Made by a program: the position numbers and the translations under genes. Positions 2,887 to 50,728 of a stretch of 50,728 bases of DNA are shown one piece after another. This DNA comes from Oscillospiraceae bacterium (GTDB taxonomy: Bacteria > Bacillota > Clostridia > Oscillospirales > CAG-272), in assembly GCA_015063455.1 (NCBI GenBank), contig SVUC01000001.1, positions 1 through 50,728 of the forward strand. Reading direction: 5' to 3'. Within the stretch, counting starts at the first letter, position 1. The number at the start of each line of letters is the position of its first letter. The notes beneath the pieces are model-generated. The model was not told the DNA's origin and searched no databases. It saw only the letters and a list, made by a program, of their open reading frames with translations.

Positions 2887-4443
2887 TCAGTTCTCCACAT
2901 TCTCAACACCGTAGTGCTTGGCAAGAGCTTTTATCTGTTCATCGGAAAGAACACCCTCGATGAGTAAGAATTCGTCAAGAGTACCCGAGAGACTGCTCAT
3001 TGTTGCAGAGGCGTCTTCACCGATACAGATTCGGCCGCAGCCTTCAAAGCCACCCTCTTTAACAGAATCGGGAAGCTCTTCTGCGATAAACTCACCAAAG
3101 TCGAACGCGAATTTCTGTTCTTGTTTTTCAAGATCAATTATATGCATAAGGTGCATCCAGCCGTCTTGATAGTCTACTGGGAGGACGACCTTAGAGCTGA
3201 TTATATCGTATGTACCGATGTTGCATCTGACGACCTTCGGCTGAAGGATCATTACAAATCCGGGATTTCTCTTGTTTGAGTTGTCCTTGTTTGCAAATAT
3301 TGCACAATCCTTGTAAACGCCGCCTGTTTTCAGCCAACAGCAAATGGTAATGCTTTTTTTGCCGATATCTATGCCGGAAAGGGTAAGATAACCGTCGTCA
3401 AGCTTGATTCCGTCTCCGTTGTATCCCTTGACATAGTAGAATTTTCCGTCACTTTTTTCGACTACAGCGGGACCGATAGCATTTTCCTCTGATCCATCAA
3501 GCGGGAGATACGCAAGGATTCGATCTTTTCCGACAATGTCTGCAATTACAGAATGATCGGGAGTTTCAGAAGGCTCGCGGTGGCGGAAGCTTGCAACGCT
3601 GTAGGTGGGCTCGAATACAGGACGTTCTTTTGCTGTGACACCTTTGAAAAGTCCTGACGGTACACGGGATGTCCAGGTTTCAGGCTGACTGTATCCAAAT
3701 GCGTGTGCGATGATCGCGGGAGTATCGCGTATCTCCATATCCACGATCGTACCGTGTTCTACAGTTTTTCCGACAGAGGCAAACATTACATAGAGCTCTT
3801 CTTTTGATAATCCGCCGTGACTTGTACCTTTTCCGCCGTGGTCAGCAGTAACGATAAACAGTGTATCGTCAATAAATCCGCGGCTCTCATACATTGCGTA
3901 AATCTTTCCGATACATTCATCAATCGTCGAGATCTGATTTAAGTGTCCCTCCGTACCGTAGCCGTAATTGTGTCCCGCGCTGTCCACAGAGTCAAATTGA
4001 ACAAAAATGAATTTCGGGTCATTTTGTGCAATGTAGTCACAGATCTTGTCTGTCAGCTCGATGTCACCGCCGTGATCCTTGTGTACTCCTAAATTATCCT
4101 CAACAATCCCCACATTAATAGGATTCCAGCAGGTGAATGAGCCCAAGGACGCGTCAGGATCATTTTCTCTGATAACACGGAAGATACTCGGGAAGATTGA
4201 GTCTGTCGGATAAGGTCTTACCGAAACAACAGTATTGGTGAGGCGGTGAATTTCAGGCTTTACACCCAAAAGCATAGCACCCCAACATTCAGCACTGATC
4301 GTCGGTTCAGCGGTAAGTGCATCATAAGTTACAGCACCGCTCTTGAAAATCTTGTCAATATTCGGAGTATCTGCATTTCTGAAATACGCACCTGCACCAT
4401 CAACGCCGATTACAATGGCACGCTTGTATATTGAATTTTCCAT
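2887..4443 (-). CDS. Leaderless (predicted cytoplasmic) paralogue of the array family: AP-superfamily NPP-like domain plus LamG-like domain
   Basis: 518 aa. It starts 'MENSIYKRAIVIGVDGAGAYF', exactly at the start of the catalytic domain in the lipoprotein copies. It shares 'PTISAECWG', 'FVQFDSVDSAGH', 'LFIVTADHGGKGTSHGG', 'GWMHL' and 'LDEFLLIEGVLSDEQIKALAKHY'. GAGGA SD upstream. Confidence 0.85.
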   Translation of the reverse strand: MENSIYKRAIVIGVDGAGAYFRNADTPNIDKIFKSGAVTYDALTAEPTISAECWGAMLLGVKPEIHRLTNTVVSVRPYPTDSIFPSIFRVIRENDPDASLGSFTCWNPINVGIVEDNLGVHKDHGGDIELTDKICDYIAQNDPKFIFVQFDSVDSAGHNYGYGTEGHLNQISTIDECIGKIYAMYESRGFIDDTLFIVTADHGGKGTSHGGLSKEELYVMFASVGKTVEHGTIVDMEIRDTPAIIAHAFGYSQPETWTSRVPSGLFKGVTAKERPVFEPTYSVASFRHREPSETPDHSVIADIVGKDRILAYLPLDGSEENAIGPAVVEKSDGKFYYVKGYNGDGIKLDDGYLTLSGIDIGKKSITICCWLKTGGVYKDCAIFANKDNSNKRNPGFVMILQPKVVRCNIGTYDIISSKVVLPVDYQDGWMHLMHIIDLEKQEQKFAFDFGEFIAEELPDSVKEGGFEGCGRICIGEDASATMSSLSGTLDEFLLIEGVLSDEQIKALAKHYGVENVEN

Positions 4444-5514: not shown

Positions 5515-5555
5515 TACATAGCGGTATGCCGCAAATCAAAAAATCGGGGGATAAT

Positions 5556-35261: not shown

Positions 35262-35306
35262 AAAAATCACCTCATAAAATGCCTATGGGGTGATTTTTTG
35301 TTTTTT
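35262..35306 (+). terminator. Rho-independent terminator after the PBP gene
   Basis: aaaatcacctcata...tatggggtgatttt hairpin followed by ttttgtttttt. Confidence 0.6.
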
Positions 35307-35822
35307 AGGAAAATTTCCAGATCAGTCAGATGTGAATTAAATATTATTCTGAGTAATATTCCGCTAATAAGTCTCGCTGCATTTTTGTGCTGTATCGGCG
35401 GAATAATTCTTTGGATAAACGGCGGAAGTACGTGGTATATATTAAAGAACAGCTTAAGCGAAAGATATTTGTTTTCACAAACGGGTATTTTCCTGCTGAA
35501 TTGTCTAACATACGGAATATATGGATGCCTCATTGCAAGTATGTTTCTATATACCAAAAGAAGAGTTATAGAAGTTAATAAAGGATTGGTTGTATTTTTA
35601 CTGACTGTTTTATCATACCTATCATTGCTGTTATGGTATGTTATTCTTTTCTGTACTAGGCTTTCATTGTTTTCATTGGTTTTCCTCGCCATATCCATTG
35701 TGTTGAAAATTACCTGTATCATATATGCAAAAAGAATATATGTTCTTTTGTTCACAATCTTATTATTACTTACCGGCCTTGAATGTGTATTTGTGTTCTT
35801 TAGCTGCCGTGTGATTTTTTAG
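35298..35822 (+). CDS. Hypothetical polytopic membrane protein (about 5 TM), very AT-rich gene
   Basis: The 174 aa product is dominated by hydrophobic helices. The competing antisense ORF (35267-35755) looks random. The TTG start sits in the terminator T-run, with GGGGTGA five nt upstream, so the start is uncertain. Confidence 0.4.
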   Translation: MFFRKISRSVRCELNIILSNIPLISLAAFLCCIGGIILWINGGSTWYILKNSLSERYLFSQTGIFLLNCLTYGIYGCLIASMFLYTKRRVIEVNKGLVVFLLTVLSYLSLLLWYVILFCTRLSLFSLVFLAISIVLKITCIIYAKRIYVLLFTILLLLTGLECVFVFFSCRVIF

Positions 35823-35851
35823 AAATGTAGTATAATAATTGAAACATCCTA

Positions 35852-35880
35852 TTGACAATTATAAACCAATATTGTATAAT
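35852..35880 (+). promoter_or_regulatory. Consensus sigma-A promoter (TTGACA-17-TATAAT)
   Basis: TTGACA 35852-35857, a 17 nt spacer, and TATAAT 35875-35880, 35 nt upstream of the lipoprotein ATG. Confidence 0.55.
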
Positions 35881-35915
35881 GAATTTGATCTTATATCTGC
35901 TTATGGAGGTAAAAA

Positions 35916-36353
35916 ATGAAAAAGATCAAATATTTTGCTTTCGCAGTAGCTATGCTTATGCTCTGTATGTCAGTTGTATCTTGCGGTTCCGCAAGCAAAA
36001 AGGTTGAGACAACATTCACAGTTTCACTTGTCCTCAATGATGCACCGTACATCGACGGTTATACTTACACCATTAAGAGAAGTGAAGATGATCCCGCAAC
36101 GATTCTTGATGCTGTTCGTGAAGCTCTTCAGGCAGTTGATGTTGAGACAACAATAGATGAAAGCGGCTTCCTCGCTAATGTTATTGTTGATGGAACAGTT
36201 TACGCGAACTTTGCAACGGAAGAAGAATATGTTTATTCGTGGATCTATACTGTAGACGGTCAGTCAGCCCCCGGCAAAGCAAGCGATGTACAGATTAAAG
36301 AAGGCTGGCATATCATTTATACTTATACAAAGGCTCCGCTTGAGGAAGAATAA
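35916..36353 (+). CDS. Small lipoprotein, DUF4430-like (transcobalamin-like beta-grasp) domain
   Basis: Signal peptide 'MKKIKYFAFAVAMLMLCMSVVSCGS' with a lipobox. The C-terminal block 'YSWIYTVDGQSAPGKASDVQIKEGWHIIYTY' resembles the DUF4430 signature as I recall it. Confidence 0.6.
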   Translation: MKKIKYFAFAVAMLMLCMSVVSCGSASKKVETTFTVSLVLNDAPYIDGYTYTIKRSEDDPATILDAVREALQAVDVETTIDESGFLANVIVDGTVYANFATEEEYVYSWIYTVDGQSAPGKASDVQIKEGWHIIYTYTKAPLEEE

Positions 36354-37370: not shown

Positions 37371-37399
37371 ATTATATCATTCAAATTTTTTCTTGTCAA
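37371..37399 (-). promoter_or_regulatory. Consensus sigma-A promoter for cysK (TTGACA-17-TATAAT on the minus strand)
   Basis: The minus strand reads TTGACA (37394-37399), an exact 17 nt spacer, and TATAAT (37371-37376). The leader is short, leaving no room for a riboswitch or T-box. Confidence 0.55.
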
Positions 37400-37452
37400 T
37401 AGAAAAAAGAATTTATAGTGAAATCTTACGCTTTATTTTGTTATATTATTGC

Positions 37453-37481
37453 TTGACAAATAAAGAGAAGGATGATATAAT
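37453..37481 (+). promoter_or_regulatory. Consensus sigma-A promoter at the head of the NPP-LamG lipoprotein array
   Basis: TTGACA 37453-37458, an exact 17 nt spacer, and TATAAT 37476-37481, about 100 nt upstream of the first array gene. Confidence 0.6.
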
Positions 37482-37587: not shown

Positions 37588-39315
37588 ATGAAAAGAACAA
37601 CTTTAACAATTATTCTTTTTTTTATACTGTGTGCATCTCTTCCGGCGTGTTCGAATGATCAAATAAATACCAATCAGGATAAAACGTCAGAATCCCTTAT
37701 TAGTGAGCAGATCGATTCCGAAGGCTCAAGTGAATCTCCGGCTGAAACTGAACTGCCTGTCACTGTTGATTCTGTTTATGAGCGTGTTGTGATCATTGGC
37801 GTTGACGGTGGAGGCGCGTATTTCAAGTATGCCGATACACCAAATCTTGATAGAATTTTTGAAAATGGTGCTGTTACGTATACCGCATTGGTTTCGTATC
37901 CGTCTGTCAGCGCGCAGGGCTGGGGTTCGATTCTGCATGGAGTTACTCCCGATCTTCACAGACTAACGAATTCTGTTGTATCAGAAACACCTTATCCTGC
38001 CGACTCCCCGTTTCCTAGTATTTTTCGAGTTGTAAGAGAAAATGATCCTGATGCACTTCTTGCGTCTATCTGCAACTGGAATCCAATAAACTATGGAATT
38101 ATTGAAGATGATCTCGATGTATATAAAACCAAAGGCGGCAATGACGAAGAGGTTGCGGATAAAGTATGCGAATATATATCCGAGAACGACCCCAAGCTTC
38201 TTTTTGTACAGTTTGATCAGGTTGACGGCGCAGGAAAGTACGGATGGGGAAGTGAACCCTATCTTCAGCAGATCACAATTACAGACGAATATATCGGACG
38301 AATATATGATGCTTACGATGAGCGTGGCTTCCTTGATGAGACTCTTTTTATTGTTACCGTAGACCACGGCGGGATCAATACAGGACACGGCGGAAAAACA
38401 CCCGAGGAGCTCGAGGTTATGTATGCCGCGGTCGGAAAAACAGTTATTCCGGGAGCAGTTATAGATGATATGCACGTCTGCGACACCGCTTCGATCGTTA
38501 TGCACGCACTCGGATATGACGTTTCGGAAAACTGGACTTCGAGAATTCCCGGAAATCTCTTTGAGGGAGTAGAAGAGCAGGAAAGGCCGATCTACGTTCC
38601 AGAGCCATCTGAGAATAGAGCTCACCTAAACGAGCCGACACCTGATGCTCAAAGCGGAAGTTATCTCACAGATTTCATTCCCGAGGACAGAATACTTGCA
38701 TATTTGACTCTTGACGGTGACGGCACAGATGCTCTCGGCAAAACCAAGACAGAGGTTCACAATAATGTCAAGTTCGTTGAAGGGTATTACGGAAGCGCGG
38801 CAGTATTTGATGAAGGACACATTTCAGTAAGTCAGTTCGCTCCCGATAAATCGAGCTTTACGATTGCTGCTTGGATCAGAACAAAGGGTGTTGAGTCTGA
38901 TCCATCGATTTGCTCGAATAAAAAGTGGTCAAACGGAAATAATAACGGATTTGTTCTTGCGTTCAGGGATGCATATATCAAGTTTAATGCTGGAAACGGA
39001 AGCTCAAGAATGGATACAGACTATCCGCTTCCTTACGATTATTATGACGGATGGATGCACGTTATTTTTTCAGTTGACAGAGAAAATAATACCGTAAACT
39101 TTACTTACGATTTCGGGAAATTCAAAACTACACCTATTACGGATGAGTTGAAAGAATCATCTTTTAATGCGTACAGCGGCCTCAACATAGGTCAGGACGG
39201 AACAGGAGAATACCACAAAAATCTTACCGCAGCACTTGATGACTTTATCATTTTCGAGGGAGCGTTCACTGAAGAAGATGTTAAAGCACTCGCTGATTAC
39301 TACAAGACTGAATAA
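37588..39315 (+). CDS. Array copy 1: lipoprotein, acidic linker, AP-superfamily NPP-like domain (His of DxxGH replaced by Lys), LamG-like domain
   Basis: 575 aa. Lipobox 'ILCASLPAC'. Also 'VVIIGVDGGGAYF', 'YPSVSAQGWGS', 'FVQFDQVDGAGK' (K217, codon 38236-38238), 'LFIVTVDHGGINTGHGG', 'FTIAAWIRTKG', 'GWMHVIF', 'LNIGQDGTG' and 'LDDFIIFEGAFTEEDVKALADYY'. Confidence 0.85.
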   Translation: MKRTTLTIILFFILCASLPACSNDQINTNQDKTSESLISEQIDSEGSSESPAETELPVTVDSVYERVVIIGVDGGGAYFKYADTPNLDRIFENGAVTYTALVSYPSVSAQGWGSILHGVTPDLHRLTNSVVSETPYPADSPFPSIFRVVRENDPDALLASICNWNPINYGIIEDDLDVYKTKGGNDEEVADKVCEYISENDPKLLFVQFDQVDGAGKYGWGSEPYLQQITITDEYIGRIYDAYDERGFLDETLFIVTVDHGGINTGHGGKTPEELEVMYAAVGKTVIPGAVIDDMHVCDTASIVMHALGYDVSENWTSRIPGNLFEGVEEQERPIYVPEPSENRAHLNEPTPDAQSGSYLTDFIPEDRILAYLTLDGDGTDALGKTKTEVHNNVKFVEGYYGSAAVFDEGHISVSQFAPDKSSFTIAAWIRTKGVESDPSICSNKKWSNGNNNGFVLAFRDAYIKFNAGNGSSRMDTDYPLPYDYYDGWMHVIFSVDRENNTVNFTYDFGKFKTTPITDELKESSFNAYSGLNIGQDGTGEYHKNLTAALDDFIIFEGAFTEEDVKALADYYKTE

Positions 39316-39341
39316 TCATTTTAAGAAATTAATTAATCATT

Positions 39342-41102
39342 ATGGAAAAGTATTTGTCAATTATTTTAGTTTTTTGCCTGACTCTAACCTCGTTGTTTTC
39401 CTGCAATGACGGAAAAGTTGACAACGGAGAGTCAGATATCGAATCTGTTATTGATTCTGAAAGCGAATCTGAATCATCTGACGAAAGTAATTCTCAATTA
39501 TCTGAAGACTCCTCATCCGAATCTGATACGGAATTACCAGAGGAAGAACCTCTTCTTGCACAGTACGAACGGGTTGTAATAATCGGAGTTGACGGTGCAG
39601 GTGCATTTTTCAAAGATACAGATACGCCGAATATTGACAGGATCTTCGAAAACGGTGCTGTTACATATACTGCACAAACAGCCACTCCTTCGAACAGTGC
39701 ACAATGCTGGGGATCATTGCTTATCGGCGTAACTACAGAGTATCACCGACTTAATAACGATGTAGCAGGGACTTTCCCATACGATCCCGATTCCATTTTT
39801 CCGAGTATTTTCAGGCTTATTCGAGAAAAGTATCCCGACGCCCTCCTTGCATCATTTTGTAACTGGAACGAAATAAATAAGGGGATCATTGAAAACAATC
39901 TTCGTGTTTATAAAGAGACAGGCAATGATTACCAGGTTACGCAAAAGATCTGCACATATCTTCAGAAAAACGATCCTAAGCTTTTATTTGTTCAGTTCGA
40001 CGCTGTTGACGGAGCAGGTCACAGCTCAGGGTACGGAAGTGCGAGACATCTTGCAGAGATCACAATGGTGGATACTTATATCGGTCAGATTTATGAAGCA
40101 TACAACGCCAAAGGTGTTCTTGATTCCACACTTTTTATTGTAACCGCGGACCACGGCGGAACATCGAGCGGATACCACGGAGGACCATCCCCCGAGGAAA
40201 TGAACATAATGTATGCAGTAGTCGGAAAGACAATCACAAAAGGTACGATCGGAGATATGTCAATTCGTGATAACGCTGCTATTGTTGCGTATGCACTGGG
40301 GATTGAGCCGCCGAAGAACTGGACCGCACGAATTCCGGGTGGCGTTTTTGAGGGTGTTGACGAACAAGAAAGACCTGTGTACATTCCACAGACAAGTGAA
40401 TCAAGACTTCACGAAAGCGTGCCCACACCGGCCATTGACAGCGGAAGATATCTCACAGATTTTATCTCATCTGACAGAATACGTGCTTATCTTACTCTCG
40501 ACGAAACTGAAGCTGATGCACTCGGTAAGCTCACAACTACAGTAGACAATAGGATCGATTACATCGAGGGTTACTACGGCGAGGCAGCATCATTTATGAA
40601 TGGCTATATTTCACTTAATGACTATGCTCCCGGAACTTCAAGCTTCACAATAGCATTTTGGTTTAAGACAACAGGAGTAGAAACAAAGAACTGTATTCTT
40701 TCTAATAAGAATTATAAAAACAGCAGCAGCCAAGGTTATTCAATTTCTCTCGATCAAAACGGCCTTCAGTTTAATTTTGGCAGCGGATCAGCAGGAATGG
40801 AGTCGGAGTATCCACTTCCTTCAGATTTTTATGACGGATGGATACACGTTACGCTTGTTGTAAACCGAGAAGCAAATATTATTCGGTATTCATACGATTT
40901 TGGAAACTTTACTAACGTAAGAATTCCGCAAGAATTGAGAAACTCCTCGTTTGACGGATACAGTGATCTCAATATAGGTCGTGACGGAACAGGTTCGTAT
41001 GCCTCACGTCTGTCCGCAGTTCTCGATGACATAATAATCTTTGATGGGGTACTGACAAGTGATGATCTCAAGTCTCTTTCGGAATATTATGCCGCAGATT
41101 AA
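39342..41102 (+). CDS. Array copy 2: lipoprotein NPP-like plus LamG-like protein
   Basis: 586 aa. Lipobox 'LTSLFSC', Ser/Glu/Asp linker, 'VVIIGVDGAGAFF', 'TPSNSAQCWGS', 'FVQFDAVDGAGH', 'LFIVTADHGGTSSGYHGG', 'GWIHVTL' and 'LDDIIIFDGVLTSDDL'. No recognisable SD in the 26 nt gap upstream. Confidence 0.85.
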   Translation: MEKYLSIILVFCLTLTSLFSCNDGKVDNGESDIESVIDSESESESSDESNSQLSEDSSSESDTELPEEEPLLAQYERVVIIGVDGAGAFFKDTDTPNIDRIFENGAVTYTAQTATPSNSAQCWGSLLIGVTTEYHRLNNDVAGTFPYDPDSIFPSIFRLIREKYPDALLASFCNWNEINKGIIENNLRVYKETGNDYQVTQKICTYLQKNDPKLLFVQFDAVDGAGHSSGYGSARHLAEITMVDTYIGQIYEAYNAKGVLDSTLFIVTADHGGTSSGYHGGPSPEEMNIMYAVVGKTITKGTIGDMSIRDNAAIVAYALGIEPPKNWTARIPGGVFEGVDEQERPVYIPQTSESRLHESVPTPAIDSGRYLTDFISSDRIRAYLTLDETEADALGKLTTTVDNRIDYIEGYYGEAASFMNGYISLNDYAPGTSSFTIAFWFKTTGVETKNCILSNKNYKNSSSQGYSISLDQNGLQFNFGSGSAGMESEYPLPSDFYDGWIHVTLVVNREANIIRYSYDFGNFTNVRIPQELRNSSFDGYSDLNIGRDGTGSYASRLSAVLDDIIIFDGVLTSDDLKSLSEYYAAD

Positions 41103-41156
41103 AATAAAGTCCATAATTCAGTTTATCTGATAAATTTTATAAATTTTGGAGGTTTT

Positions 41157-42962
41157 ATGAAAAAGTATTTGGCAATCCTTTTAGTACTGTGTTTGACATT
41201 CACTTCGATGTTCGCGTGCTCAAATACAGACAACGAATCAGGCAATGATTCGAATGACGACGTGAATGTTGAGACACCAAGCGATTCAGACAGCTCATCC
41301 GATACCCCTGATGAGACCGATCCCGATGAACCGGTCGATTCAGAATCGGACGAACCTGTCGAATCTCCTACTGAATCTGAGACAGAAGAACCCGAAGAAG
41401 AGCCTCTCGTAGCTCTCTATGATAGAGTTGTTCTCATTGGTGTTGACGGCGCCGGATCTTTCTTCCAGAACACACCGACTCCGAACATTGATAAGATCTT
41501 TGCAAACGGTGCTGTTACATATACCGCACAGACCGCTACTCCTTCTATCAGTGCACAGAGCTGGGGATCTCTCCTTCTCGGTGTAACTCCCGATCTTCAC
41601 AGACTTACAAACGGTATTGTAGGCTCAACACCTTATGATGTTGATTCCATCTTCCCGAGTATTTTCCGTGTTATACGCGAAAATGATCCTGACGCAGTTC
41701 TCGCATCATTCTGTAACTGGAATCCTATTAACGTAGGTATTATTGAAGATAACCTTGGTGTAATTAAGGATTCGGGAAATGACGCACAAGTTACAAAGAA
41801 GGCTTGTGATTTCATCGCGCAAAACGATCCTAAGCTCCTCTTCGTACACTTTGACCAGGTAGATGGTGCAGGACACGGCTCAGGTTACGGTAGTTCCAAG
41901 CACTTGAACCAGATCACAATTTCTGACGGATATATCGGTCAGATCTATAATGCACTTGAACAAAGAGGTTTCCTTGAAACCACTCTCTTCATCGTAACAG
42001 CTGACCACGGCGGAACACCCGGTGGTTCTCACGGTGGATCTACTCCCGAAGAAATGAACATTATGTATGCAGCTATTGGACATAATATCGTTCCCGGCGG
42101 AACAATTCCGGATATGCAGATCCGCGATAACGCATCCATTATTATGTATGCACTTGGTTACAAGCAGCCGAGCACTTGGACATCCAGAATTCCCGGTGAT
42201 TTCTTTGTAGGCGTTGATGAACAGGAAAGACCTGAATTTGTTCCCGAACCTTCAGAAAATCGTAAGCACGAAAACGAACCCACACCTACCGCTGACAGCG
42301 GAGAATACCTCACAGACTTTATTTCCTCCGACAGAGTTCTTGCATACCTCACTCTCGACGGAAATGAAACAGATGCTCTTGGTAAGGTAACAACAGCTGC
42401 AAATAATAAGATCTATTATATTGAAGGTTATTACGGCGAAGCAGCACAGCTTGATGATGGATATATTTCAATCAATGACTATGCTCCCGGAAATTCAAGC
42501 TTTACATTATCGTTCTGGTTCAAGACAAGCGGCGTATCAAGTGACCCGTGTCTCGTTTCCAATAAGAAATGGCAGAGTGGAGGAAATCCCGGATACGTTC
42601 TCTCTCTCCGTCCGACTGATGTAAAATTCAACCTTGGTAACGGATCCTCAAGAATGGATACAGAATACTCTCTCCCTCTTGACTTCTATCACGGATGGGT
42701 ACATGTAATTTTAGCAGTTGACAGAGACGCAGGTTCAGTTAGTTTCTGGTATGACTTCAGTAATCCTATCACAACAGGTATTTCCGATAGTCTCAAGAAT
42801 GTTTCCTTTGATTCATTTAATGTTTTGAATCTCGGTCAGGACGGAACCGGAAATTACTCAGAGCCTCTTACAGCTACAATGGATGAATTTATCATCTTCG
42901 ACGGTGCATTCACACAGGGAGATGTTGATGCACTTGCAGCATACTACAAAATTGAAAAGTAA
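41157..42962 (+). CDS. Array copy 3: lipoprotein NPP-like plus LamG-like protein
   Basis: 601 aa. Lipobox 'FTSMFAC', the longest acidic linker, 'VVLIGVDGAGSFF', 'TPSISAQSWGS', 'FVHFDQVDGAGH', 'LFIVTADHGGTPGGSHGG', 'GWVHVIL' and 'MDEFIIFDGAFTQGDV'. GGAGG SD. Confidence 0.9.
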   Translation: MKKYLAILLVLCLTFTSMFACSNTDNESGNDSNDDVNVETPSDSDSSSDTPDETDPDEPVDSESDEPVESPTESETEEPEEEPLVALYDRVVLIGVDGAGSFFQNTPTPNIDKIFANGAVTYTAQTATPSISAQSWGSLLLGVTPDLHRLTNGIVGSTPYDVDSIFPSIFRVIRENDPDAVLASFCNWNPINVGIIEDNLGVIKDSGNDAQVTKKACDFIAQNDPKLLFVHFDQVDGAGHGSGYGSSKHLNQITISDGYIGQIYNALEQRGFLETTLFIVTADHGGTPGGSHGGSTPEEMNIMYAAIGHNIVPGGTIPDMQIRDNASIIMYALGYKQPSTWTSRIPGDFFVGVDEQERPEFVPEPSENRKHENEPTPTADSGEYLTDFISSDRVLAYLTLDGNETDALGKVTTAANNKIYYIEGYYGEAAQLDDGYISINDYAPGNSSFTLSFWFKTSGVSSDPCLVSNKKWQSGGNPGYVLSLRPTDVKFNLGNGSSRMDTEYSLPLDFYHGWVHVILAVDRDAGSVSFWYDFSNPITTGISDSLKNVSFDSFNVLNLGQDGTGNYSEPLTATMDEFIIFDGAFTQGDVDALAAYYKIEK

Positions 42963-42981
42963 GATTTAAGAATAGAATTGA

Positions 42982-43012
42982 TATTTGTGCTGAAGAAAAT
43001 TCAGCACAAATA
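42982..43012 (+). terminator. Perfect 13 bp stem-loop inside the array (between copies 3 and 4): possible attenuator, partial terminator or RNA processing/stability element
   Basis: tatttgtgctgaa-gaaaa-ttcagcacaaata read directly from the sequence. Only a weak T-tract follows (actattgtc). Confidence 0.45.
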
Positions 43013-43044
43013 CTATTGTCTAAGATTATCCAAGGAGTTACAAG

Positions 43045-44808
43045 ATGAAAAAAATTCTCGCACTGATTCTTACACTTTTTATGATAACTTCTGCATTTGT
43101 CTCCTGCTCAAACGATCAGAACGAATCGGAAAGTAATCCAAACGAATCGAACGGTGATTCGAATGAACCGATTGAGACACCCGATGAATCCGAATCTGAC
43201 ACTGAATCAGAATCGGAAACTGAAACTGAAACTGAAATAGAAGATCCCGTAGTAATAGAAGCACCGTATAAAAGAGTAATCGTTATCGGTGTCGACGGGG
43301 CGGGTGCATACTTTAAGAGAACCGATACCCCTAACATCGACAGAATTTTTGAGGGAGGCGCTGTTACTTATGAAGCTGTTACAGCAACACCTTCCATCAG
43401 TGCACAAAGCTGGGGTGAGATCCTGATCGGTGTAACTGCAGACGTACATAAGCTTTCAAATTCAATAGTCGGATCAAGACGTTATGATACTGAATCACTC
43501 TTCCCGACAATGTTCAGAGCTGTTCGGGAAAATGATCCTGAGGCTACACTTGCATCATTCTGTAATTGGGATCCTATTAACTATGGTATTATTGAAGAAA
43601 ATCTTGGTGTATATAAAGCATCGGGAAGTGACGCCGAAGTTACAAAGAAGGTTTGCAAATTTGTTGCAGAAAACGATCCTAAGCTCGTGTTTGTTCAGTT
43701 TGATGAATGTGACGGCGTGGGACATAGTAAGGGATTTGGTTTCCCGGATCAGCTCAAGCAGATTACCGTAACTGACGGTTACATTGGTCAGATATATGAT
43801 GCTTATGTTGAGAGAGGCTTTATTGATGAAACTCTGTTTATCGTAACAGCCGACCACGGCGGAAACAGCACAGGTCACGGCGGCTCAACATACGATGAAA
43901 TGCACGTTATGTACGCCGCTGCAGGTCACACAGTTGTTCCCGGAACTATCGGTGAGATGTCAGTACGAGATAATGCTGCAATAGTTTTGCACGCACTCGG
44001 ATATACTCAGCCTGCAACCTGGACTGCAAGAATTCCCGCAAATCTTTTTGAAGGTGTAGAAGTGCAGGAAAGACCTACGTATGAAATTCCTACACTTAGT
44101 GAAAACCGCAATCATGTAAATGCGCCCACTCCTGCAGTGGATAGCGGTGAATATTTAACAGATATCTTTAACATTGATGATATTTACGCATATCTCACAA
44201 TGGATGGAAATGACCTTGACGCACTTGGAAAAGTAACAACCGAAACCAAAAAGAAGGTTTATTATGTAGAGGGTTATTACGGAGAAGGCGCAGTTCTTGA
44301 AGACGGATATATCCGAATGAAAGATTATTATCCCGAGAACAACAGCTTTACAATGTCTTTCTGGCTTAAAACTCCCGGTTGTGCAGATGATCCTTCAATG
44401 ATCTCGAATAAGTATTGGCGCAACGGAGCTTCACAGGGTTATGCATTCTTTATGAGAGGATATGATCTTGGATTTAATATCGGAAATAATGAAAATAGCT
44501 ATGAAGCTTGTTTCTCGTTGCCGTCAGACTTTGCGAACGGTTGGATGCATATTCTCCTAACGGTTGACAGAGAAAACGCAAAGATCGGACTTTCGTATGA
44601 CTTTGGGGAACTCGAATTTATAAATATTCCGGAAAAATTCAAGGATGTTTCACTTAAAGGTTTCAGAAATCACCTCAATATAGGACAAGACGGTTCTGGA
44701 GCTTATTCAAGCGTCGTTCCCGGTGTTTATGATGAATTCATAATCTTCAACGGCGCATTCACACAGGAAGATGTTGATAAACTCGCATCTTATTACAAAG
44801 TACAGTGA
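43045..44808 (+). CDS. Array copy 4: lipoprotein NPP-like plus LamG-like protein
   Basis: 587 aa. Lipobox 'TSAFVSC', 'VIVIGVDGAGAYF', 'TPSISAQSWGE', 'FVQFDECDGVGH', 'LFIVTADHGGNSTGHGG', 'GWMHILL' and 'YDEFIIFNGAFTQEDV'. AAGGAG SD. Confidence 0.9.
   Translation: MKKILALILTLFMITSAFVSCSNDQNESESNPNESNGDSNEPIETPDESESDTESESETETETEIEDPVVIEAPYKRVIVIGVDGAGAYFKRTDTPNIDRIFEGGAVTYEAVTATPSISAQSWGEILIGVTADVHKLSNSIVGSRRYDTESLFPTMFRAVRENDPEATLASFCNWDPINYGIIEENLGVYKASGSDAEVTKKVCKFVAENDPKLVFVQFDECDGVGHSKGFGFPDQLKQITVTDGYIGQIYDAYVERGFIDETLFIVTADHGGNSTGHGGSTYDEMHVMYAAAGHTVVPGTIGEMSVRDNAAIVLHALGYTQPATWTARIPANLFEGVEVQERPTYEIPTLSENRNHVNAPTPAVDSGEYLTDIFNIDDIYAYLTMDGNDLDALGKVTTETKKKVYYVEGYYGEGAVLEDGYIRMKDYYPENNSFTMSFWLKTPGCADDPSMISNKYWRNGASQGYAFFMRGYDLGFNIGNNENSYEACFSLPSDFANGWMHILLTVDRENAKIGLSYDFGELEFINIPEKFKDVSLKGFRNHLNIGQDGSGAYSSVVPGVYDEFIIFNGAFTQEDVDKLASYYKVQ
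43216..43239 (+). repeat. Hexanucleotide (GAAACT)3 plus a partial unit inside the acidic linker of copy 4 (encodes ETETETEI)
   Basis: Read directly: gaaact gaaact gaaact gaaata. It is embedded in a wider GAA/GAT/TCN-rich low-complexity tract (about 43110-43250). Confidence 0.7.
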
Positions 44809-44836
44809 TTCATAATCTATTTGTATAGGTGAACAA

Positions 44837-46579
44837 ATGAAAAAAATACTCGCAATTATTCTTGCTCTTGCAATGATGACAGTATCATTTATGTCATGCT
44901 CAAACGATCAGAATGAATCTGATAACGACAGTAACAATCCGAATGAATCCGTAAACAATCCGGACGAATCTGAATCAGATGATCCTGCAGAGGAGTCTGA
45001 ATCGCAGATCGAAGACCCTGTAACCGCAGAAGCACCGTATAAAAGAGTAATCGTTATCGGTGTTGATGGTGCAGGTGCATACTTCAATAGAACTGACACT
45101 CCGAATATCGACAGAATTTTTGAGGGCGGTGCTGTTACATACGAAGCTGTAACAGCAACACCTTCAATCAGCGCACAGTGTTGGGGTGAAATTTTGCTCG
45201 GTATAACAGCCGATGTCCATAAGCTTACAAACTCCACAGCGGCATACATTCCTTATAATCCTGAGTCGATATTCCCGTCGATCTTCAGAGTAGTACGTGA
45301 AAATGATCCTGAAGCAACCATTGCATCTTTTTGTAACTGGGATACTATCAACTGCGGTTTCATTGAAGATAATATCGGTGTATACAAAACTTCAGGTAAT
45401 GATGCCAATATTGCACAGAAGGTTTGCGATTTCGTTGCAGAAAATGATCCTAAGCTTGTATTCATACAGTTCGACGAAGTAGATGGCGCGGGTCATAATG
45501 AGGGCTTTGGCGGTGAAGAACAGCTCGAACAGATCACAGTAACTGACGGATATATCGGTCAGATCTACGACGCGTATGCAGCCAAGGGATATATCGAAGA
45601 TACACTCTTTATCGTTACAGCTGACCATGGCGGAAATGGAAATGACCACGGCGGTGATACATTCGACGAAATGCACGTTATGTACGCGGCAGCAGGTCAT
45701 ACAGTTGTATCGGGGACTATCGGTGAGATGTCAGTACGTGATAACGCCGCAATCGTTATGCACGCACTCGGATATTCCTGCCCTGAAACATGGACCGCAA
45801 GAGTTCCCGGAAACCTCTTTGAAGGTGTAGAAGAGCAGGAAAGACCTTCTTATGAGGTCCACGCAATGAGTGAAAACCGCAATCATGCAAGTGAGCCCAC
45901 ACCTGCTATTGACAGCGGAAAGTTTATTACTGATTACTTCAGCTCAGATGATATTTACGCATATCTTACTTTGGACGGAACTGATCTCGACGCACTTGAG
46001 AAAGTTACAACCGAGACAAAGAAAAATGTAACATATGCGGAAGGTTATTACGGCCAGGGTGCTGTCCTTGAAGAAGGATTCATCCAGATAAAAGAATATT
46101 ATCCTGAAAATAACAGTTTCACAGCATCTCTTTGGATCAATACAACAGGTTCAATTGATGACCCCGCACTCTTCTCCAACAAGTATTGGAGTAAGGGTAA
46201 CTCCATCGGCTATGCGTTTTATATTACAGGAAATAATGTTGGATTTAACATCGGCAACGGAAAATACTGTTACGACGCAATGTTCTATCCGCCTGCTGAT
46301 TTCGATAAAGGCTGGATGCACATAATTCTTACGGTAGACAGAGAAGCCGGAACAGTTGGTATTTCCTTCGATTTCGGCGAGATGCAGGTTGTTGAGCTTC
46401 CAGACCAATATAAAGATATTTCACTCAAGGGACCCAAGAATCATCTCACTCTCGGGCAGGACGGAGCAGGAACTTATCCGTATGTTGTGCCCGGTGTCTA
46501 TGATGAATTTATGATGTTCAACAGAGTATTCACACAGGAAGATGTTGCAAAGCTTGCTGAATATTATAACGCACAGTAA
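44837..46579 (+). CDS. Array copy 5: lipoprotein NPP-like plus LamG-like protein
   Basis: 580 aa and closest to copy 4. The 35 nt run gaagcaccgtataaaagagtaatcgttatcggtgt is identical at 43258-43292 and 45029-45063. Also 'FIQFDEVDGAGH' and 'LFIVTADHGGNGNDHGG'. AGGTGA SD. Confidence 0.9.
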   Translation: MKKILAIILALAMMTVSFMSCSNDQNESDNDSNNPNESVNNPDESESDDPAEESESQIEDPVTAEAPYKRVIVIGVDGAGAYFNRTDTPNIDRIFEGGAVTYEAVTATPSISAQCWGEILLGITADVHKLTNSTAAYIPYNPESIFPSIFRVVRENDPEATIASFCNWDTINCGFIEDNIGVYKTSGNDANIAQKVCDFVAENDPKLVFIQFDEVDGAGHNEGFGGEEQLEQITVTDGYIGQIYDAYAAKGYIEDTLFIVTADHGGNGNDHGGDTFDEMHVMYAAAGHTVVSGTIGEMSVRDNAAIVMHALGYSCPETWTARVPGNLFEGVEEQERPSYEVHAMSENRNHASEPTPAIDSGKFITDYFSSDDIYAYLTLDGTDLDALEKVTTETKKNVTYAEGYYGQGAVLEEGFIQIKEYYPENNSFTASLWINTTGSIDDPALFSNKYWSKGNSIGYAFYITGNNVGFNIGNGKYCYDAMFYPPADFDKGWMHIILTVDREAGTVGISFDFGEMQVVELPDQYKDISLKGPKNHLTLGQDGAGTYPYVVPGVYDEFMMFNRVFTQEDVAKLAEYYNAQ

Positions 46580-46654
46580 TAGAACGCTGACTTTTAAGTT
46601 TGACTCAATAATCTAGTTTTGAAATCATTTTGTGAAGTGTAAGGTGGCATTATT

Positions 46655-46921
46655 ATGAAAAAGATATTGTCAATGATCCTCGTGCTTGTGATGCTTACAA
46701 CATTGTTTGCGTCATGCTCGAATGATCAGAATAAAGCGGAAAGTAAGAATAACGAATCAATAAACGATCAAACAGAATCCGATACTACACTCGAAGATAC
46801 AGAATCCGAGACAGAAGAAGATACCGAGGAATCTGAAACCGAAATCGAAGAGCCGGTTGTACTCGAACCACCGTATAAACGTGTAGTTTTGATCGGAGTT
46901 GACGGTGCAGGTGCATTCTTC
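46655..46921 (+). repeat. Direct repeat, copy A (5' end of array gene 6), near-identical to 47734-48000
   Basis: My manual alignment finds about 16 mismatches in 267 nt, with exact runs of 33-35 nt. Identity falls sharply after this tract. Confidence 0.75.
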
Positions 46922-47677
46922 AAAAAAGCAGAAACACCGAACATTGATAGAATTTTTGAAAACGGTGCAGTTACTTATGATGCTGTTACAGCGACTCCGT
47001 CAGTTAGTGCACAGTGCTGGGGATCACTTCTTCATGGTGTTCCCGCTGATATACATCGCCTTACATTCTCTATTATTGATAATTATCCTTACGGTACTGT
47101 TTCAAGAATTCCTAGCATATTCCAAGTCGTGCGTGATAATGATTCCGAAGCACTTCTTGCATCTATCGTTAACTGGATTCCTATCAATAGAGGCGTTGTT
47201 GAAGATGGAATCGGTATACATAAGGATACCGGAGACGATCAGCAGGTAACAGATAAAGTTTGTAAATACCTGAAGGAACACGATCCAAAACTTTTATTCG
47301 TTCATTTTGACAGTGTTGATGGCGCAGGACATAATGATGGTTACGGGAGTAACGACCACCTTAAACAGATAAAGGTTATTGATGGATACATCGGATTAAT
47401 ATACAGTGTGCTTGAAAACAGAGGAATGCTTGATGATACTTTGTTCATAGTAACTACAGACCACGGTGGAACCCCCGATGGCACACACGGTGAAGATACA
47501 GATGCAGAGATGAAAATTATGTACGCTGCTGTTGGGCACAGTGTTCAAAAAGGTGGGAAAATAGGTGAAATGTCTATCTGGGATAATGCGGCTGTAATCG
47601 CGTATGCGCTCGGATATGAAGCACCTGAAAAATGGACCTCAAAAATTCCTAACGGACTTTTTCAAGAAATCGAATAA
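46655..47677 (+). CDS. Array copy 6: truncated paralogue (signal peptide, linker, NPP-like domain only, no LamG module), possibly decaying
   Basis: 340 aa. It ends '...KIPNGLFQEIE' followed by tandem stops TAA TAG, at the point where the other copies continue 'LFEGVEEQERP...'. Substitutions occur at positions otherwise conserved in the array: 'NWIPIN', 'SIWDNAA' and 'THGED'. Confidence 0.8.
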   Translation: MKKILSMILVLVMLTTLFASCSNDQNKAESKNNESINDQTESDTTLEDTESETEEDTEESETEIEEPVVLEPPYKRVVLIGVDGAGAFFKKAETPNIDRIFENGAVTYDAVTATPSVSAQCWGSLLHGVPADIHRLTFSIIDNYPYGTVSRIPSIFQVVRDNDSEALLASIVNWIPINRGVVEDGIGIHKDTGDDQQVTDKVCKYLKEHDPKLLFVHFDSVDGAGHNDGYGSNDHLKQIKVIDGYIGLIYSVLENRGMLDDTLFIVTTDHGGTPDGTHGEDTDAEMKIMYAAVGHSVQKGGKIGEMSIWDNAAVIAYALGYEAPEKWTSKIPNGLFQEIE

Positions 47678-47733
47678 TAGAAAAACTCGAACTATTCAAA
47701 AAAGTATAGAAAAATATTTAAGGTGATATTATA

Positions 47734-48000
47734 ATGAAAAAAATATTGTCAATGATCCTCGTGCTTGTGATGCTTGCAACATTGTTTGCGTCATGCTCGA
47801 ATGATCAGAATGAATCGGAAAGTAAGAATAATGAATCAATAAACGATCAGAAAGAATCCGATACTACACCCGAAGATACAGAATCCGAGACCGAAGCAGA
47901 TACCGAGGAATCTGAAACTGAAATAGAAGAACCGGTTGTACTCGAACCTCCGTATAAACGCGTAGTTTTGATCGGAGTTGACGGTGCTGGTGCATTCTTC
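47734..48000 (+). repeat. Direct repeat, copy B (5' end of array gene 7)
   Basis: See the partner repeat at 46655-46921. The two copies are offset by 1079 nt. Confidence 0.75.
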
Positions 48001-49503
48001 CAGAAAACAGACACCCCAAATCTCGACAGGATTTTTGAGAACGGTGCCGTTACTTACGAAGCAATAACATCGACTCCTTCAATCAGTGCACAGTGCTGGG
48101 GTTCCCTCATTCACGGTGTTACCGCAGATGTACACAGACTTACAAACTCTATTGCTGAAAAGCATCCCTATGGTATAAGCTCGAGAATCCCAAGTATATT
48201 CAGCGTTGTACGTGAAAACGATCCCGAAGCTGTTCTTGCATCAATCTGTAACTGGAATCCAATTAATATTGGTATTGTAGAAGATGATATTGGTATACAC
48301 AAAGATACCGGTAACGACTCAAAGGTTACATATAAAGTTTGTAAATACCTGCAGAAAAATGATCCTAAACTCCTGTTCGTTCACTTTGACAGCGTTGACG
48401 GCGCAGGTCATGCCGATGGATACGGAAGCAAAAAGCATCTGCAGCAGATCACTACGATTGACGGATATATCGGAACGATATACGGCGTTCTCGATTCACT
48501 TGATATGCTTGAAGATACACTCTTCATTGTTACCACGGACCACGGAGGAACACCCGAGGGTTCACATGGTGGAGACACAGATGCAGAAATGAAGATCATG
48601 TATGCTGCTATTGGACACAATGTTCAAAAGGGAAGTACGATCGGTGAAATGTCAATTCGTGACAACGCGGCGATTGTTATGTATGCTCTTGGCTATGACG
48701 TAGCAGATGAATGGACTTCAAGAATTCCGGGCGGACTTTTCGAGGGAGTTGAGGAGCAGGAGAGACCGATATATACACCTCCGGGGGTAGTTCTTCCTGA
48801 GAGAGATTATGAGAGCCAGCCAACTCCCGCGGCAGGAAGCGGAGAGCATATTACCGATTTCTTCAGTGAAGAAAATATTGCAGCGTACCTTACACTTGAC
48901 GGTGATGCGAGCGATTCAATGGGCAAAGTGGCTACAGAACCAAACGGCAAGCTCTATTACGTTGAAGGCTACTACGGTCAGGGAACAGCGTTTGACGACG
49001 GATATATCACCCTCAAGGATTATAAGCCCGGCTCAAAGGATTTCTCTATTGCGTTTTGGCTGAAAACAAGCGGACTAAAAGGTGAGCAGGCGTTGTTCTC
49101 AAATAAGGACATCTCGGTAGGAAAGAACGCTGGATTTACTTTGTCGTTAAAGCCTGGTGCCCTAAAATTCAATACAGGAAACACTATCAGTGCAACAAAT
49201 TTCGAATATACAATGCCGGCGAACTATAAAGAAGGATGGGTGCACGTTGTTCTCTCAGTAAACAGAACATTCGGTTCGATCAGCGTTGCCTACGACTTTG
49301 GAGATTTCCAGAAATCAACTCTTAATTCCGCAATGAAATTTATGTCGTTCAACGCATTGGATCTTCTTAATATTGGACAGGACGGAACGGGTACATACGA
49401 GAATAAGCTGTCAGCAGCTATTGATGATATCATAATCTTCAATACTGCTCTAAAAGCTCAGGATCTCGCTCGTCTTTCAGATTACTATAACATAGAAGAA
49501 TAA
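47734..49503 (+). CDS. Array copy 7: lipoprotein NPP-like plus LamG-like protein
   Basis: 589 aa. Lipobox 'LFASC', 'VVLIGVDGAGAFF', 'TPSISAQCWGS', 'FVHFDSVDGAGH', 'LFIVTTDHGGTPEGSHGG', 'GWVHVVL' and 'IDDIIIFNTALKAQDL'. AAGGTGA SD. Confidence 0.9.
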   Translation: MKKILSMILVLVMLATLFASCSNDQNESESKNNESINDQKESDTTPEDTESETEADTEESETEIEEPVVLEPPYKRVVLIGVDGAGAFFQKTDTPNLDRIFENGAVTYEAITSTPSISAQCWGSLIHGVTADVHRLTNSIAEKHPYGISSRIPSIFSVVRENDPEAVLASICNWNPINIGIVEDDIGIHKDTGNDSKVTYKVCKYLQKNDPKLLFVHFDSVDGAGHADGYGSKKHLQQITTIDGYIGTIYGVLDSLDMLEDTLFIVTTDHGGTPEGSHGGDTDAEMKIMYAAIGHNVQKGSTIGEMSIRDNAAIVMYALGYDVADEWTSRIPGGLFEGVEEQERPIYTPPGVVLPERDYESQPTPAAGSGEHITDFFSEENIAAYLTLDGDASDSMGKVATEPNGKLYYVEGYYGQGTAFDDGYITLKDYKPGSKDFSIAFWLKTSGLKGEQALFSNKDISVGKNAGFTLSLKPGALKFNTGNTISATNFEYTMPANYKEGWVHVVLSVNRTFGSISVAYDFGDFQKSTLNSAMKFMSFNALDLLNIGQDGTGTYENKLSAAIDDIIIFNTALKAQDLARLSDYYNIEE

Positions 49504-49505: not shown

Positions 49506-49543
49506 AAAAAAACGGAAGGTTTTCATATAGCCTTCCGTTTTTC
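49506..49543 (+). terminator. Rho-independent terminator closing the array
   Basis: aaaaaacggaagg-ttttcatatag-ccttccgttttt, a GC-containing stem followed by a T-run. Confidence 0.75.
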
Positions 49544-49686: not shown

Positions 49687-50728
49687 ATGCGTAAAATCAA
49701 AAAAACGAGAAGAAGAACCGATACAACCGTATACATTCTTTTGGGAATAATGATCGTGCTGTGTGCCGTAATTGTTTTTTTAGGAATGGCATATTTCAGT
49801 CAGATGAGGCTGAATCAGTTTTCGAAAAACATTACTTTTTCCGATAATTACTTTTTGCGGAATTATTCCTATGTTCACAATGAAAATGAAGTACCTCGCT
49901 CCAAAGAGTATTATACATTTAATGAAGCGGTCGAGATAGTAAAGTCACTTCTTGATGATTACGGCGTCCAATACGATACCTTTGATATGGAAATATTCTA
50001 TCATTATCATCCCGACAGAGAACTGACTGAAACAGACATATTCGGCTATTATTACAATATTATAAGGTCAATTTCAGATTCACACAACGGTACAGGATAT
50101 TTCTTGTTTTCCGAGCACATTGAGAATATAACAGGAATGTCACACGAGAACGATGATTATACATATCCTCGAGAGCTTGTTCTCGATCAGATCGCAAAGA
50201 TCGTAAAAGCATCATTTGAGTGGGCACCGGGACTTTTCATTGATAAATATGGTACAATCAGATACGATTTCTCAGAATATGGCGGTTATATTCATGAGGA
50301 AATGGAAGTAGTGAGTTATGTTGATCCTGCTTACTATGAACGTATCACAACAAAAGTTAATAATGTTTTGTACGAGGCTGAGCGGCTTATGGCTACCTCA
50401 GAAGCTTACGGAGCAGAGTACAATTTTGACAGTATAGCACGTCTTTATTACGACAGCGTCGCAGCTGCATATTTTCCTCCGATTGAGTATATATTGAGCA
50501 CAGAGGAAATCTTAAACGAAATATCCGGCGACGAATATGGAACAATCAAGCTGAAAATACTTGACGCCGAGCATATTTCACAGCTTCCCGAATATCCTAA
50601 CGGCTGTGAAGCGGTATCCGCAGTAATGATGCTCAGATATTTTGGATTTGATATTGATAAAACCGATTTTATAGATAATTATCTCGAAAAAGAAGAGGTT
50701 GATATACGTTGGGGAATTCGCTTCGGAC
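49687..50728 (+). CDS. Partial CDS (3' end outside the window): membrane-anchored protein ending in a peptidase C39-like (papain-fold) domain
   Basis: My own translation reads 'MRKIKKTRRRTDTTVYILLGIMIVLCAVIVFLGMAYF...' (N-terminal TM) through '...ISQLPEYPNGCEAVSAVMMLRYFGFDIDKTDFIDNYL', which resembles the Peptidase_C39_2 catalytic-Cys block. GAGAGAG SD. It is not in the ORF track because there is no stop in the window. Confidence 0.6.
   Translation, partial: MRKIKKTRRRTDTTVYILLGIMIVLCAVIVFLGMAYFSQMRLNQFSKNITFSDNYFLRNYSYVHNENEVPRSKEYYTFNEAVEIVKSLLDDYGVQYDTFDMEIFYHYHPDRELTETDIFGYYYNIIRSISDSHNGTGYFLFSEHIENITGMSHENDDYTYPRELVLDQIAKIVKASFEWAPGLFIDKYGTIRYDFSEYGGYIHEEMEVVSYVDPAYYERITTKVNNVLYEAERLMATSEAYGAEYNFDSIARLYYDSVAAAYFPPIEYILSTEEILNEISGDEYGTIKLKILDAEHISQLPEYPNGCEAVSAVMMLRYFGFDIDKTDFIDNYLEKEEVDIRWGIRFG

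Follow-up and report, generated by a model that had tools for sequence, protein, structure and literature searches.

What is the run of seven related genes at positions 37588–49503 of contig SVUC01000001.1 for, and why would one bacterium keep so many versions of the same protein side by side? The contig belongs to the assembly of an Oscillospiraceae bacterium (GCA_015063455.1), and the stretch analyzed here, referred to as the window, comprises its positions 1 to 50,728. A first-pass annotation, made from the sequence alone, had described the run as seven surface lipoproteins, each fusing a phosphodiesterase domain of the alkaline-phosphatase (AP) superfamily, similar to nucleotide pyrophosphatases/phosphodiesterases (NPPs), to a LamG/concanavalin A (ConA)-like domain. 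We refer to these genes as G1 to G7, with G3 as the reference copy, and to an eighth paralogue elsewhere in the window as G0 (Table 1). The answer we favor, with a probability of roughly 55%, is that these genes code for a panel of binuclear-metal phosphoesterases on the cell surface, enzymes that use LamG as their substrate-binding or specificity part and that together cover several specificities for extracellular organophosphates. Two components of this answer, the chemistry class (metallo-phosphoesterase) and the localization, are well supported. As for the substrates, our best guess is that plant and microbial biomass in the gut supplies them, in the form of polymers and head groups that are phosphodiester-linked or phosphorylated.

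The case for the chemistry class starts with the N-terminal domain. In all seven array proteins, it matches the Pfam profile Phosphodiest (PF01663) at 54.7–70 bits (cutoff 23), with only profile positions 1 to ~224 of 342 covered, and it also exceeds the cutoff of Metalloenzyme (PF01676; 29–40 bits versus 24.3). The Sulfatase profile always scores far below Phosphodiest and, in three of the seven proteins, just reaches its cutoff of 25 bits. An AlphaFold2 (AF2) model of G3, built on an alignment of 61 sequences, has a mean pLDDT of 89.4 and a pTM of 0.83, with disorder confined to the signal peptide and linker. In G3, the catalytic domain spans residues ~88–360 (nt 41418–42236; ~275 aa). When this domain was compared with the Protein Data Bank (PDB) using Foldseek, NPPs were the top matches (probability 1.00, E ~1e-13), with 12–15% identity and TM scores of 0.52–0.57 as normalized to the single-domain NPP targets. 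NPPs (the Xanthomonas enzyme, 2gsn/7n1s; ENPP4, ENPP5, and ENPP7; PF01663) are the best matches by Pfam, PDB sequence search, and Foldseek alike.

The active-site residues fit this picture. Six residues (D97, S132, D236, D283, H284, and H292) do not vary among the 61 family members, and at least 90% of these members retain H240 and N152. D97 is present in all eight window paralogues and aligns with the NPP motif 'ISIDG', whereas D236/H240, D283/H284, and H292 are all present in G2–G7 and G0; the complete catalytic set is found in six of the eight copies, the exceptions being G1 and G6. S132 aligns with the nucleophile Thr90 of the Xanthomonas (Xac) NPP in HMMER alignments and forms the start of helix 132–141 in the AF2 model. 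We predict that Asp97, Asp283, and His284 form one metal site and Asp236, His240, and His292 the other, with His292 proposed as the sixth ligand on the basis of its conservation and the alignment with iPGM. Asn152 is putatively positioned like the NPP Asn that touches the phosphoryl group: it lies 20 residues past the nucleophile, compared to 21 for Asn111 in Xac NPP, and the HMMER alignment stops at the residue before it. The family shares with NPPs the six metal ligands, a nucleophile at the same helix N-terminus, an extracellular location (predicted here), and the motifs GxDG, PS-x-[ST], G-x-x-P-x-x-H...N, [FY]-x-[DE]-x-x-D-x-x-GH, and DHG. Every defining feature of the AP superfamily that we tested was found, and on these features we assign the catalytic domain to it.

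Within the superfamily, three features of an NPP in the strict sense are absent, namely the Thr nucleophile, the aromatic residue that follows it, and the long insertion. The nucleophile motif reads 'PSISAQ' in place of the 'PSLTFP' of NPPs, so that Ser-Ala replaces Thr-aromatic; Phe91, which in Xac NPP stacks on the base in the nucleotide pocket, aligns here with Ala133. The last His follows the DHG motif by only 7–8 residues (DHGGxxxx(x)HGG) as opposed to ~105 in NPPs, from which the family also differs by its low identity, a target-normalized TM of ~0.55, and the C-terminal LamG domain. Alignments of the family profile with NPPs end at DHG. With the ~100-aa NPP insertion missing, the C-terminal half can be aligned to iPGM without interruption, starting at the DxxGH helix and running over DHG and the short His loop to the C-terminal helix. 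This likeness to iPGM and phosphopentomutase agrees with the PF01676 matches, and iPGM also uses a Ser nucleophile. Unlike these enzymes, however, the family has no evident inserted transferase or cap domain, carries NPP-like N-terminal motifs, and is predicted to be exported in seven of eight window copies; the match between G0 and phosphopentomutase is weak (E 3e-6, far below cutoff). Judged by its alignments, the catalytic domain is a compact AP core of ~275 aa whose front half resembles NPPs and whose back half resembles iPGM/phosphopentomutase, and it is best described as a distinct, uncharacterized subfamily. A curated family name could not be assigned through NCBIfam, which returned only sub-threshold matches to sulfatase, iPGM, and PPM models (equivalog scores of 16–26 bits versus cutoffs of 256–330). 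PDB sequence searches found no close relative, and a full-text literature search, with subscription-only publications outside its reach, found no relevant paper on the family.

The C-terminal domain is a genuine Laminin_G_3/ConA-like jelly roll in six of the seven array genes. Laminin_G_3 (PF13385) scored 40–48 bits in G1–G5 and G7 (cutoff 27.6), and these six proteins exceed the Phosphodiest and Laminin_G_3 cutoffs together. In G3, the domain covers residues ~401–598 (nt 42357–42950; ~200 aa) behind a connector at residues 361–400, and residues 413–582 are all-beta in the AF2 model. The top Foldseek matches were the jelly rolls of the clostridial neurotoxin HCN domain (PF07953; BoNT/TeNT) and NTNH (E ~2e-12), with which, as with Laminin_G_3, the domain shares a C-terminal 'DE[FV]x[IL][FY]' motif. 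In contrast to BoNT/TeNT HCN, it has no toxin context and is fused to an enzyme. By analogy, and in architecture only, the arrangement may be compared to ENPP1-3, in which a permanent non-catalytic domain lies C-terminal to an NPP-type catalytic domain, although the accessory fold there is nuclease-like rather than a LamG jelly roll; long Foldseek alignments to ENPP1/3 have an rmsd of 13–17 Å and are not meaningful past the catalytic domain. In the model, LamG is joined through a well-ordered connector. It seems to be built into the enzyme rather than to serve as an optional anchor, since the catalytic and LamG domains (~510 aa) are conserved as one module, also in leaderless proteins.

The predicted localization rests on the N-termini. 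On inspection of sequence patterns, G1–G7 all begin with a K/R-rich start and a hydrophobic core and have a Cys at position 21, preceded by loose Firmicutes-type lipobox variants (LPAC, LFSC, MFAC, FVSC, FMSC, and FASC, the LPAC of G1 being atypical); the pattern expected for Lgt/Lsp-type processing is present, and G1–G7 are thus predicted lipoproteins. Their linkers are 42–66 aa long, contain 54–67% D/E/S/T, and carry a net charge of −9 to −26. In the G3 model, residues 18–73 are disordered with pLDDT <50, and the linker is disordered to about residue 87. G0 has neither signal peptide nor linker, with in-frame stops 5′ of its ATG.

Set against these data, the first-pass annotation holds up in its core and needs correction at the edges. 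The AP-superfamily and LamG/ConA-like domains both stand, as do the catalytic and LamG motif blocks it quoted, which we found on inspection of the sequences, and its remark that no characterized member was known. The label 'NPP-like' suits the N-terminal motifs; the Ser nucleophile, the adjacent Ala, the missing insertion, and the additional PF01676 match speak against it. The seven genes are real, but only six carry the fusion, with LamG absent from G6. The D/E/S/T-rich linker, proposed at 40–70 aa, is confirmed in length for G1–G7 and absent from G0, and by its lipobox pattern 'surface lipoprotein' fits seven of eight copies, with the eighth paralogue present, as had been counted, yet leaderless.

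How widespread is this architecture? A word-indexed protein search returned at least 997 matches, all with generic names only ('hypothetical protein', 'alkaline phosphatase family protein'). We searched representatives at 50% identity exhaustively and obtained 492 at E ≤1e-30, a number that rises to 2,178 at E ≤1e-10. Nearly all top representatives match G3 residues ~87–598 in a single stretch, whatever their overall architecture, so the catalytic domain and LamG form one conserved ~510-aa module inside proteins of ~510 to ~2,500 aa; the extra parts of the long homologues are further LamG repeats and Big_2 domains. Among 147 representatives classified by leader type, 37 combine a signal peptide with a lipobox, 38 show just a signal peptide, and 27 or more have no leader. 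In GTDB species representatives, relatives are encoded at no fewer than 454 loci. The best 80 of these belong to Clostridia/Oscillospiraceae, Bacteroidales, Thermoguttaceae and other Planctomycetota, and one Verrucomicrobiota, and a ruminant source is explicit in the names of at least 41 of the 80; the family is thus concentrated in metagenome-assembled genomes from ruminant and herbivore guts, across four phyla. Mis-binning is unlikely to account for this cross-phylum spread because several of the relatives' contigs exceed 150 kb. Identities between phyla (47–57%) are no lower than among the window paralogues, which fits horizontal spread within the gut habitat.

Multi-copy loci are the exception, with 77 of 83 loci being single-copy. 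Arrays nevertheless occur elsewhere, with six catalytic domains in five genes (L011), four (L060), three (L074 and L075), and two (L043). In L011 (SVSJ01000030.1, 5181–16360), from an Oscillospiraceae metagenome-assembled genome (MAG), five consecutive family genes encode proteins of 600, 613, 720, 578, and 905 aa, the last with two catalytic domains in a single polypeptide. In L060 (JAZUKT010000095.1, 114–11596), from a Eubacteriales MAG, two tandem lipoproteins of 575 and 567 aa enclose a 337-aa catalytic-only copy, and a leaderless 517-aa copy lies ~5 kb away; this composition mirrors that of the G0–G7 window, and the trio of long, short, and leaderless forms may be a recurring set. Two judgments of novelty are thereby withdrawn: the fusion is not unusual, given 492 clusters and at least 454 genome loci, and the eight-copy expansion, once called striking, has parallels in these other arrays. 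Likewise, the idea of LamG as a 'lectin-like targeting module' for display goes further than the data, as the same unit occurs in leaderless, presumably cytoplasmic proteins. The family is large, ecologically focused, and unstudied, and its architecture is widespread rather than unique to the window.

If so many loci manage with one copy, what do the copies in the window have in common, and where do they differ? The paralogues are 49–59% identical to their neighbors and 49–57% to their best foreign homologue, the only younger pairs being G4/G5 (69%) and G6/G7 (78%). All pairs, including those with G1 and G6, show a dN/dS of 0.10–0.15 with saturated dS (>1). A recent lineage-specific burst is therefore rejected as the origin of the array, as the paralogues are as far apart from each other as from foreign homologues. 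The paralogues share on average 63.5% identity over the catalytic domain, compared with 41.6% over LamG; G0 exaggerates this difference, its catalytic domain being 55–62% identical to those of the array genes and its LamG only 30–34%. These comparisons indicate that the duplications are old, that all copies are under purifying selection, and that LamG diverges faster than the catalytic domain, making several specificities likely.

Two of the copies depart from the common plan. In G1, the metal-ligand His240 is missing (GAG-K in the DxxGH motif); the gene is still under purifying selection, given its dN/dS of ~0.10 against G3. G6 ends directly past the catalytic domain, and it carries the substitution N152F and HGE where the others have HGG. 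Its first ~340 nt are ~95% identical to G7, and dS between the two is 0.27 at the 5′ end versus 1.54 elsewhere, which indicates a recent gene conversion across the signal-peptide and linker region. We considered G6 as a dead pseudogene; its dN/dS of 0.11 and the short forms recurring elsewhere speak against this. Catalytic-only short forms in other genomes have signal peptides, intact catalytic residues, and the same end boundary, so G6 is probably a maintained variant, albeit with an N152F that is unique among the short forms compared.

Taken together, each array protein would be exported, lipid-anchored at Cys21, and held at the outer face of the single membrane of a monoderm Oscillospiraceae cell, with the acidic, disordered stalk of 42–66 aa keeping the enzyme away from the membrane. 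Ser132 would attack the substrate as the nucleophile and form a covalent phospho-Ser enzyme intermediate, with LamG acting as the substrate-binding or specificity subunit. The array as a whole would thereby offer several substrate specificities for the hydrolysis of extracellular organophosphate esters in the gut, and G0 would perform the same chemistry inside the cell.

Several observations weigh against this account. No biochemically characterized member was found in NCBIfam, the PDB, or the full-text literature. The lipoprotein assignment is a prediction from patterns, and at least 27 of the 147 representatives are leaderless, so that surface polymers cannot be the sole substrates of the family. 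The conserved polar LamG residues (N469, K470, W472, N492, R499, D501, and D562 across the family) could mark a common ligand or a structural interface instead of a variable specificity, and the recurrence of catalytic-only short forms in other genomes means that LamG is not strictly required. Lacking His240 (G1) or LamG and the usual Asn152 (G6), two array members may be impaired or functionally different. The genes flanking the array are housekeeping or unrelated genes, and among 914 clustered open reading frames (ORFs) from 81 related loci we found no conserved neighbor indicative of a substrate, the most frequent occurring at 11 of the 81, all as single-clade synteny.

Could the array simply serve general phosphate scavenging? 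Under this unlikely but serious alternative, the proteins would be ecto-phosphatases or nucleotide pyrophosphatases in a canonical NPP or PhoA/PhoD-like role that free inorganic phosphate or nucleosides from nucleic acids and nucleotides, with LamG giving structural support only, analogous to the nuclease-like domain of ENPP1-3. The nearest sequence and structure relatives are indeed nucleotide pyrophosphatases/phosphodiesterases, the pattern-predicted location is extracellular, and the many invariant LamG residues would suit a structural role. However, Ala133 takes the place of the base-stacking aromatic (Phe91 in Xac NPP), and the NPP insertion is missing. No phosphate regulon (pst/phoU/phoR), nucleoside or other transporter, or glycan/polysaccharide-utilization genes flank the array in the window, and the perfect −35/−10 promoter suggests constitutive rather than Pho-activated expression. 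Eight old, separately maintained paralogues with a fast-diverging LamG are also hard to square with one generic substrate.

A bolder reading, which we consider somewhat more doubtful still, takes the catalytic–LamG unit as a new functional class that cleaves phosphate esters of complex phosphorylated biopolymers, has spread horizontally through at least four phyla of herbivore-gut bacteria, and forms arrays as specificity panels. Its targets would be teichoic-acid-like or capsular phosphodiester glycans, phosphoglycans, and phospholipid or phosphonolipid head groups. The arrays would then be the phosphoester counterpart of expanded carbohydrate-active enzyme families, and the compact NPP/iPGM-hybrid core would represent a previously unrecognized branch of the AP superfamily.

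Considerably less probable is a role as phosphotransferases that, like LtaS, EptA/MCR-1, and BcsG, move a phospho-alcohol group from a donor onto a cell-envelope glycan, here one bound by LamG; the cell would decorate its own wall, and the paralogues would serve different acceptors. LtaS, EptA/MCR-1, and BcsG are AP-fold enzymes with a Ser/Thr nucleophile, and the family shares the Ser nucleophile of BcsG and, by prediction, an AP fold anchored at the membrane surface. One Bacteroidales clade even has envelope genes (a UndP-translocase-like gene and LPG_synthase_TM) near the family gene, but this context is limited to that clade. Moreover, the proteins have no polytopic membrane domain for lipid donors, the 42–66-aa stalk would keep the enzyme off the membrane, the Pfam assignment is Phosphodiest plus Metalloenzyme, Sulfatase with its weak matches described above being the only family with such transferases to score, and leaderless, presumably cytoplasmic members exist. 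Least plausible of all are pseudoenzymes acting as binding proteins or adhesins, with the AP-like domain as scaffold and LamG as lectin: G1 without a metal-ligand His, G6 with an altered Asn and no LamG, and larger homologues whose LamG repeats and Big_2 domains recall the scaffolds of surface adhesins would fit, but the catalytic residues are conserved family-wide (H240 and N152 at ≥90%) and intact in six of eight window copies, and of the two halves it is the catalytic domain that is better conserved (dN/dS ~0.1).

If the surface phosphoesterase panel is the correct interpretation, these genes represent a large enzyme family of the herbivore rumen and hindgut, with hundreds of sequence clusters in four phyla, all uncharacterized. 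In the gut, the turnover of organophosphates (nucleic acids, phospholipids, teichoic acids) matters quantitatively and is poorly assigned to enzymes. The family would also be a natural experiment in which the AP fold has been trimmed and re-equipped, with an NPP-like front, an iPGM-like compact back, a Ser nucleophile, and a jelly-roll partner, and the locus offers eight ready variants for specificity mapping, among them one that naturally lacks LamG and one that has naturally lost a metal ligand. We do not see a new kind of biological system here: we are dealing with an unstudied subfamily of a well-known superfamily, whose sequence demands no unusual mechanism.

Table 1. Family genes and expression signals in the window.
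Feature	Position	Strand	Description
G0, eighth paralogue (found by tblastn)	2887..4443	−	518 aa; catalytic–LamG module only; complete catalytic set
Second perfect sigma-70 promoter (12/12) with TG extension	37399–37371	−	faces cysK-like gene
Sigma-70 promoter, TTGACA-17-TATAAT (12/12), with extended −10 TG	37453..37481	+	~107 nt 5′ of G1
G1	37588..39315	+	575 aa; lipoprotein signal, acidic linker, catalytic domain, LamG
G2	39342..41102	+	586 aa; complete architecture and complete catalytic set
G3 (reference copy)	41157..42962	+	601 aa; signal peptide, linker, catalytic domain, connector, LamG
13-bp perfect hairpin, G3–G4 gap	42982..43012	+	dG −19.3, z −4.2; no U-tail
G4	43045..44808	+	587 aa; complete architecture and complete catalytic set
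G5	44837..46579	+	580 aa; complete architecture and complete catalytic set
G6	46655..47677	+	340 aa; lipoprotein signal, linker, catalytic domain only
G7	47734..49503	+	589 aa; complete architecture and complete catalytic set
Intrinsic terminator, 14-bp stem followed by U-tract	49508..49542	+	dG −18.4 kcal/mol, z −5.85 versus shuffles

The layout of the array (Table 1) would suit a single operon. All seven ORFs run in the same direction on the + strand, separated by gaps of 26, 54, 82, 28, 75, and 56 nt from G1 to G7, with a promoter on the 5′ side and a terminator on the 3′ side; here the gene coordinates, the perfect promoter, and the strong terminator reported by the first-pass annotation were all reproduced. 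The array also contains an internal hairpin and promoter-like sites at 46600, 47307, and 47707. The terminator stem is flanked by an A-tract and a U-tract and could therefore act bidirectionally. The hairpin between G3 and G4 may act in RNA processing or stability or as a weak terminator inside the array, which it could split into two units of transcription or of stability. A riboswitch or structured leader at G1 was rejected, as an Rfam search of the leader found no riboswitch and its fold is no better than random (z −0.76 versus shuffles). The 238-nt intergenic region between the cysK-like gene and G1 holds both perfect promoters back to back (37371–37481). Clear Shine-Dalgarno sites of the GGAGG/AAGGTG type precede G3–G7; none is recognizable for G2 (39316–39341, the 26-nt gap), and that of G1 is weak, which may reflect translational coupling or lower expression.

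The remaining genes of the window include GH36, tRNA-Arg, SpoIIAB, sigma-F, PolA, two ABC exporters, an acyltransferase, LysR, TrmO, NusB, a TsaD-like protein, XseA, IspA, an FtsJ-like protein, NadK, ArgR, RecN, TyrS, HAD, MurB, WhiA, DnaE, a class A PBP, CysK, and a C39-like membrane protein. Gene neighborhoods at related loci were rejected as a clue to the substrate, since the shared neighbors (at most 11 of 81 loci) reflect single-clade synteny. In Clostridia loci, a DeoR regulator, a two-LamG protein, and a ~500-aa lipoprotein often adjoin the family gene; we discarded the DeoR and lipoprotein pair (10 instances) as a partner system, the lipoprotein having no Pfam or PDB match and no permease genes lying alongside. 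Neighbors of the endonuclease/exonuclease/phosphatase (EEP) family, initially seen beside three loci, occur at only five of 81 and not in the window, and a Pot-like ABC transporter upstream is confined to two closely related MAGs; both leads were rejected.

In the Bacteroidales clade with envelope genes nearby, an ordinary ~407-aa Phosphodiest lipoprotein adjoins a 481-aa HAD-like lipoprotein (L028, 5603–8290; L008, 3185–4411). The latter carries an FDFDNT motif and matches PDB entry 4gxt (8e-17) and, weakly, the phosphorylcholine phosphatase PchP (2e-4). The pair lies 1.6–5 kb from the LamG fusion gene and gives a weak hint of phospho-head-group catabolism. As a partner of the fusion, however, the PchP-like protein was rejected, since it adjoins the separate 407-aa Phosphodiest gene and not the LamG fusion. 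At another locus (L081, 14702–21725), a protein of >4,600 aa with NAGPA (GlcNAc-1-phosphodiester alpha-GlcNAcase), CotH kinase, and Dockerin domains lies near the homologue, placing sugar-phosphodiester chemistry in the same neighborhood.

Within the window, four ORFs of 137–174 aa have no Pfam match (35298–36353, 16496–16948, 6299–6712), two of them located between the class A PBP and cysK-like genes, just 5′ of the array region. Past the terminator lies a gene (49687–50727) that runs off the contig end and whose product is membrane-anchored and has a C39-like peptidase domain. G0 adjoins genes for a SpoIIAB-like anti-sigma-F kinase and a sigma-F-like protein (5062–6296), whose presence indicates a spore-forming lineage. 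On its other side, a tRNA-Arg (CCT; 2654–2729, minus strand) lies ~160 nt past the G0 stop and is the sole Rfam/ARAGORN match in the window.

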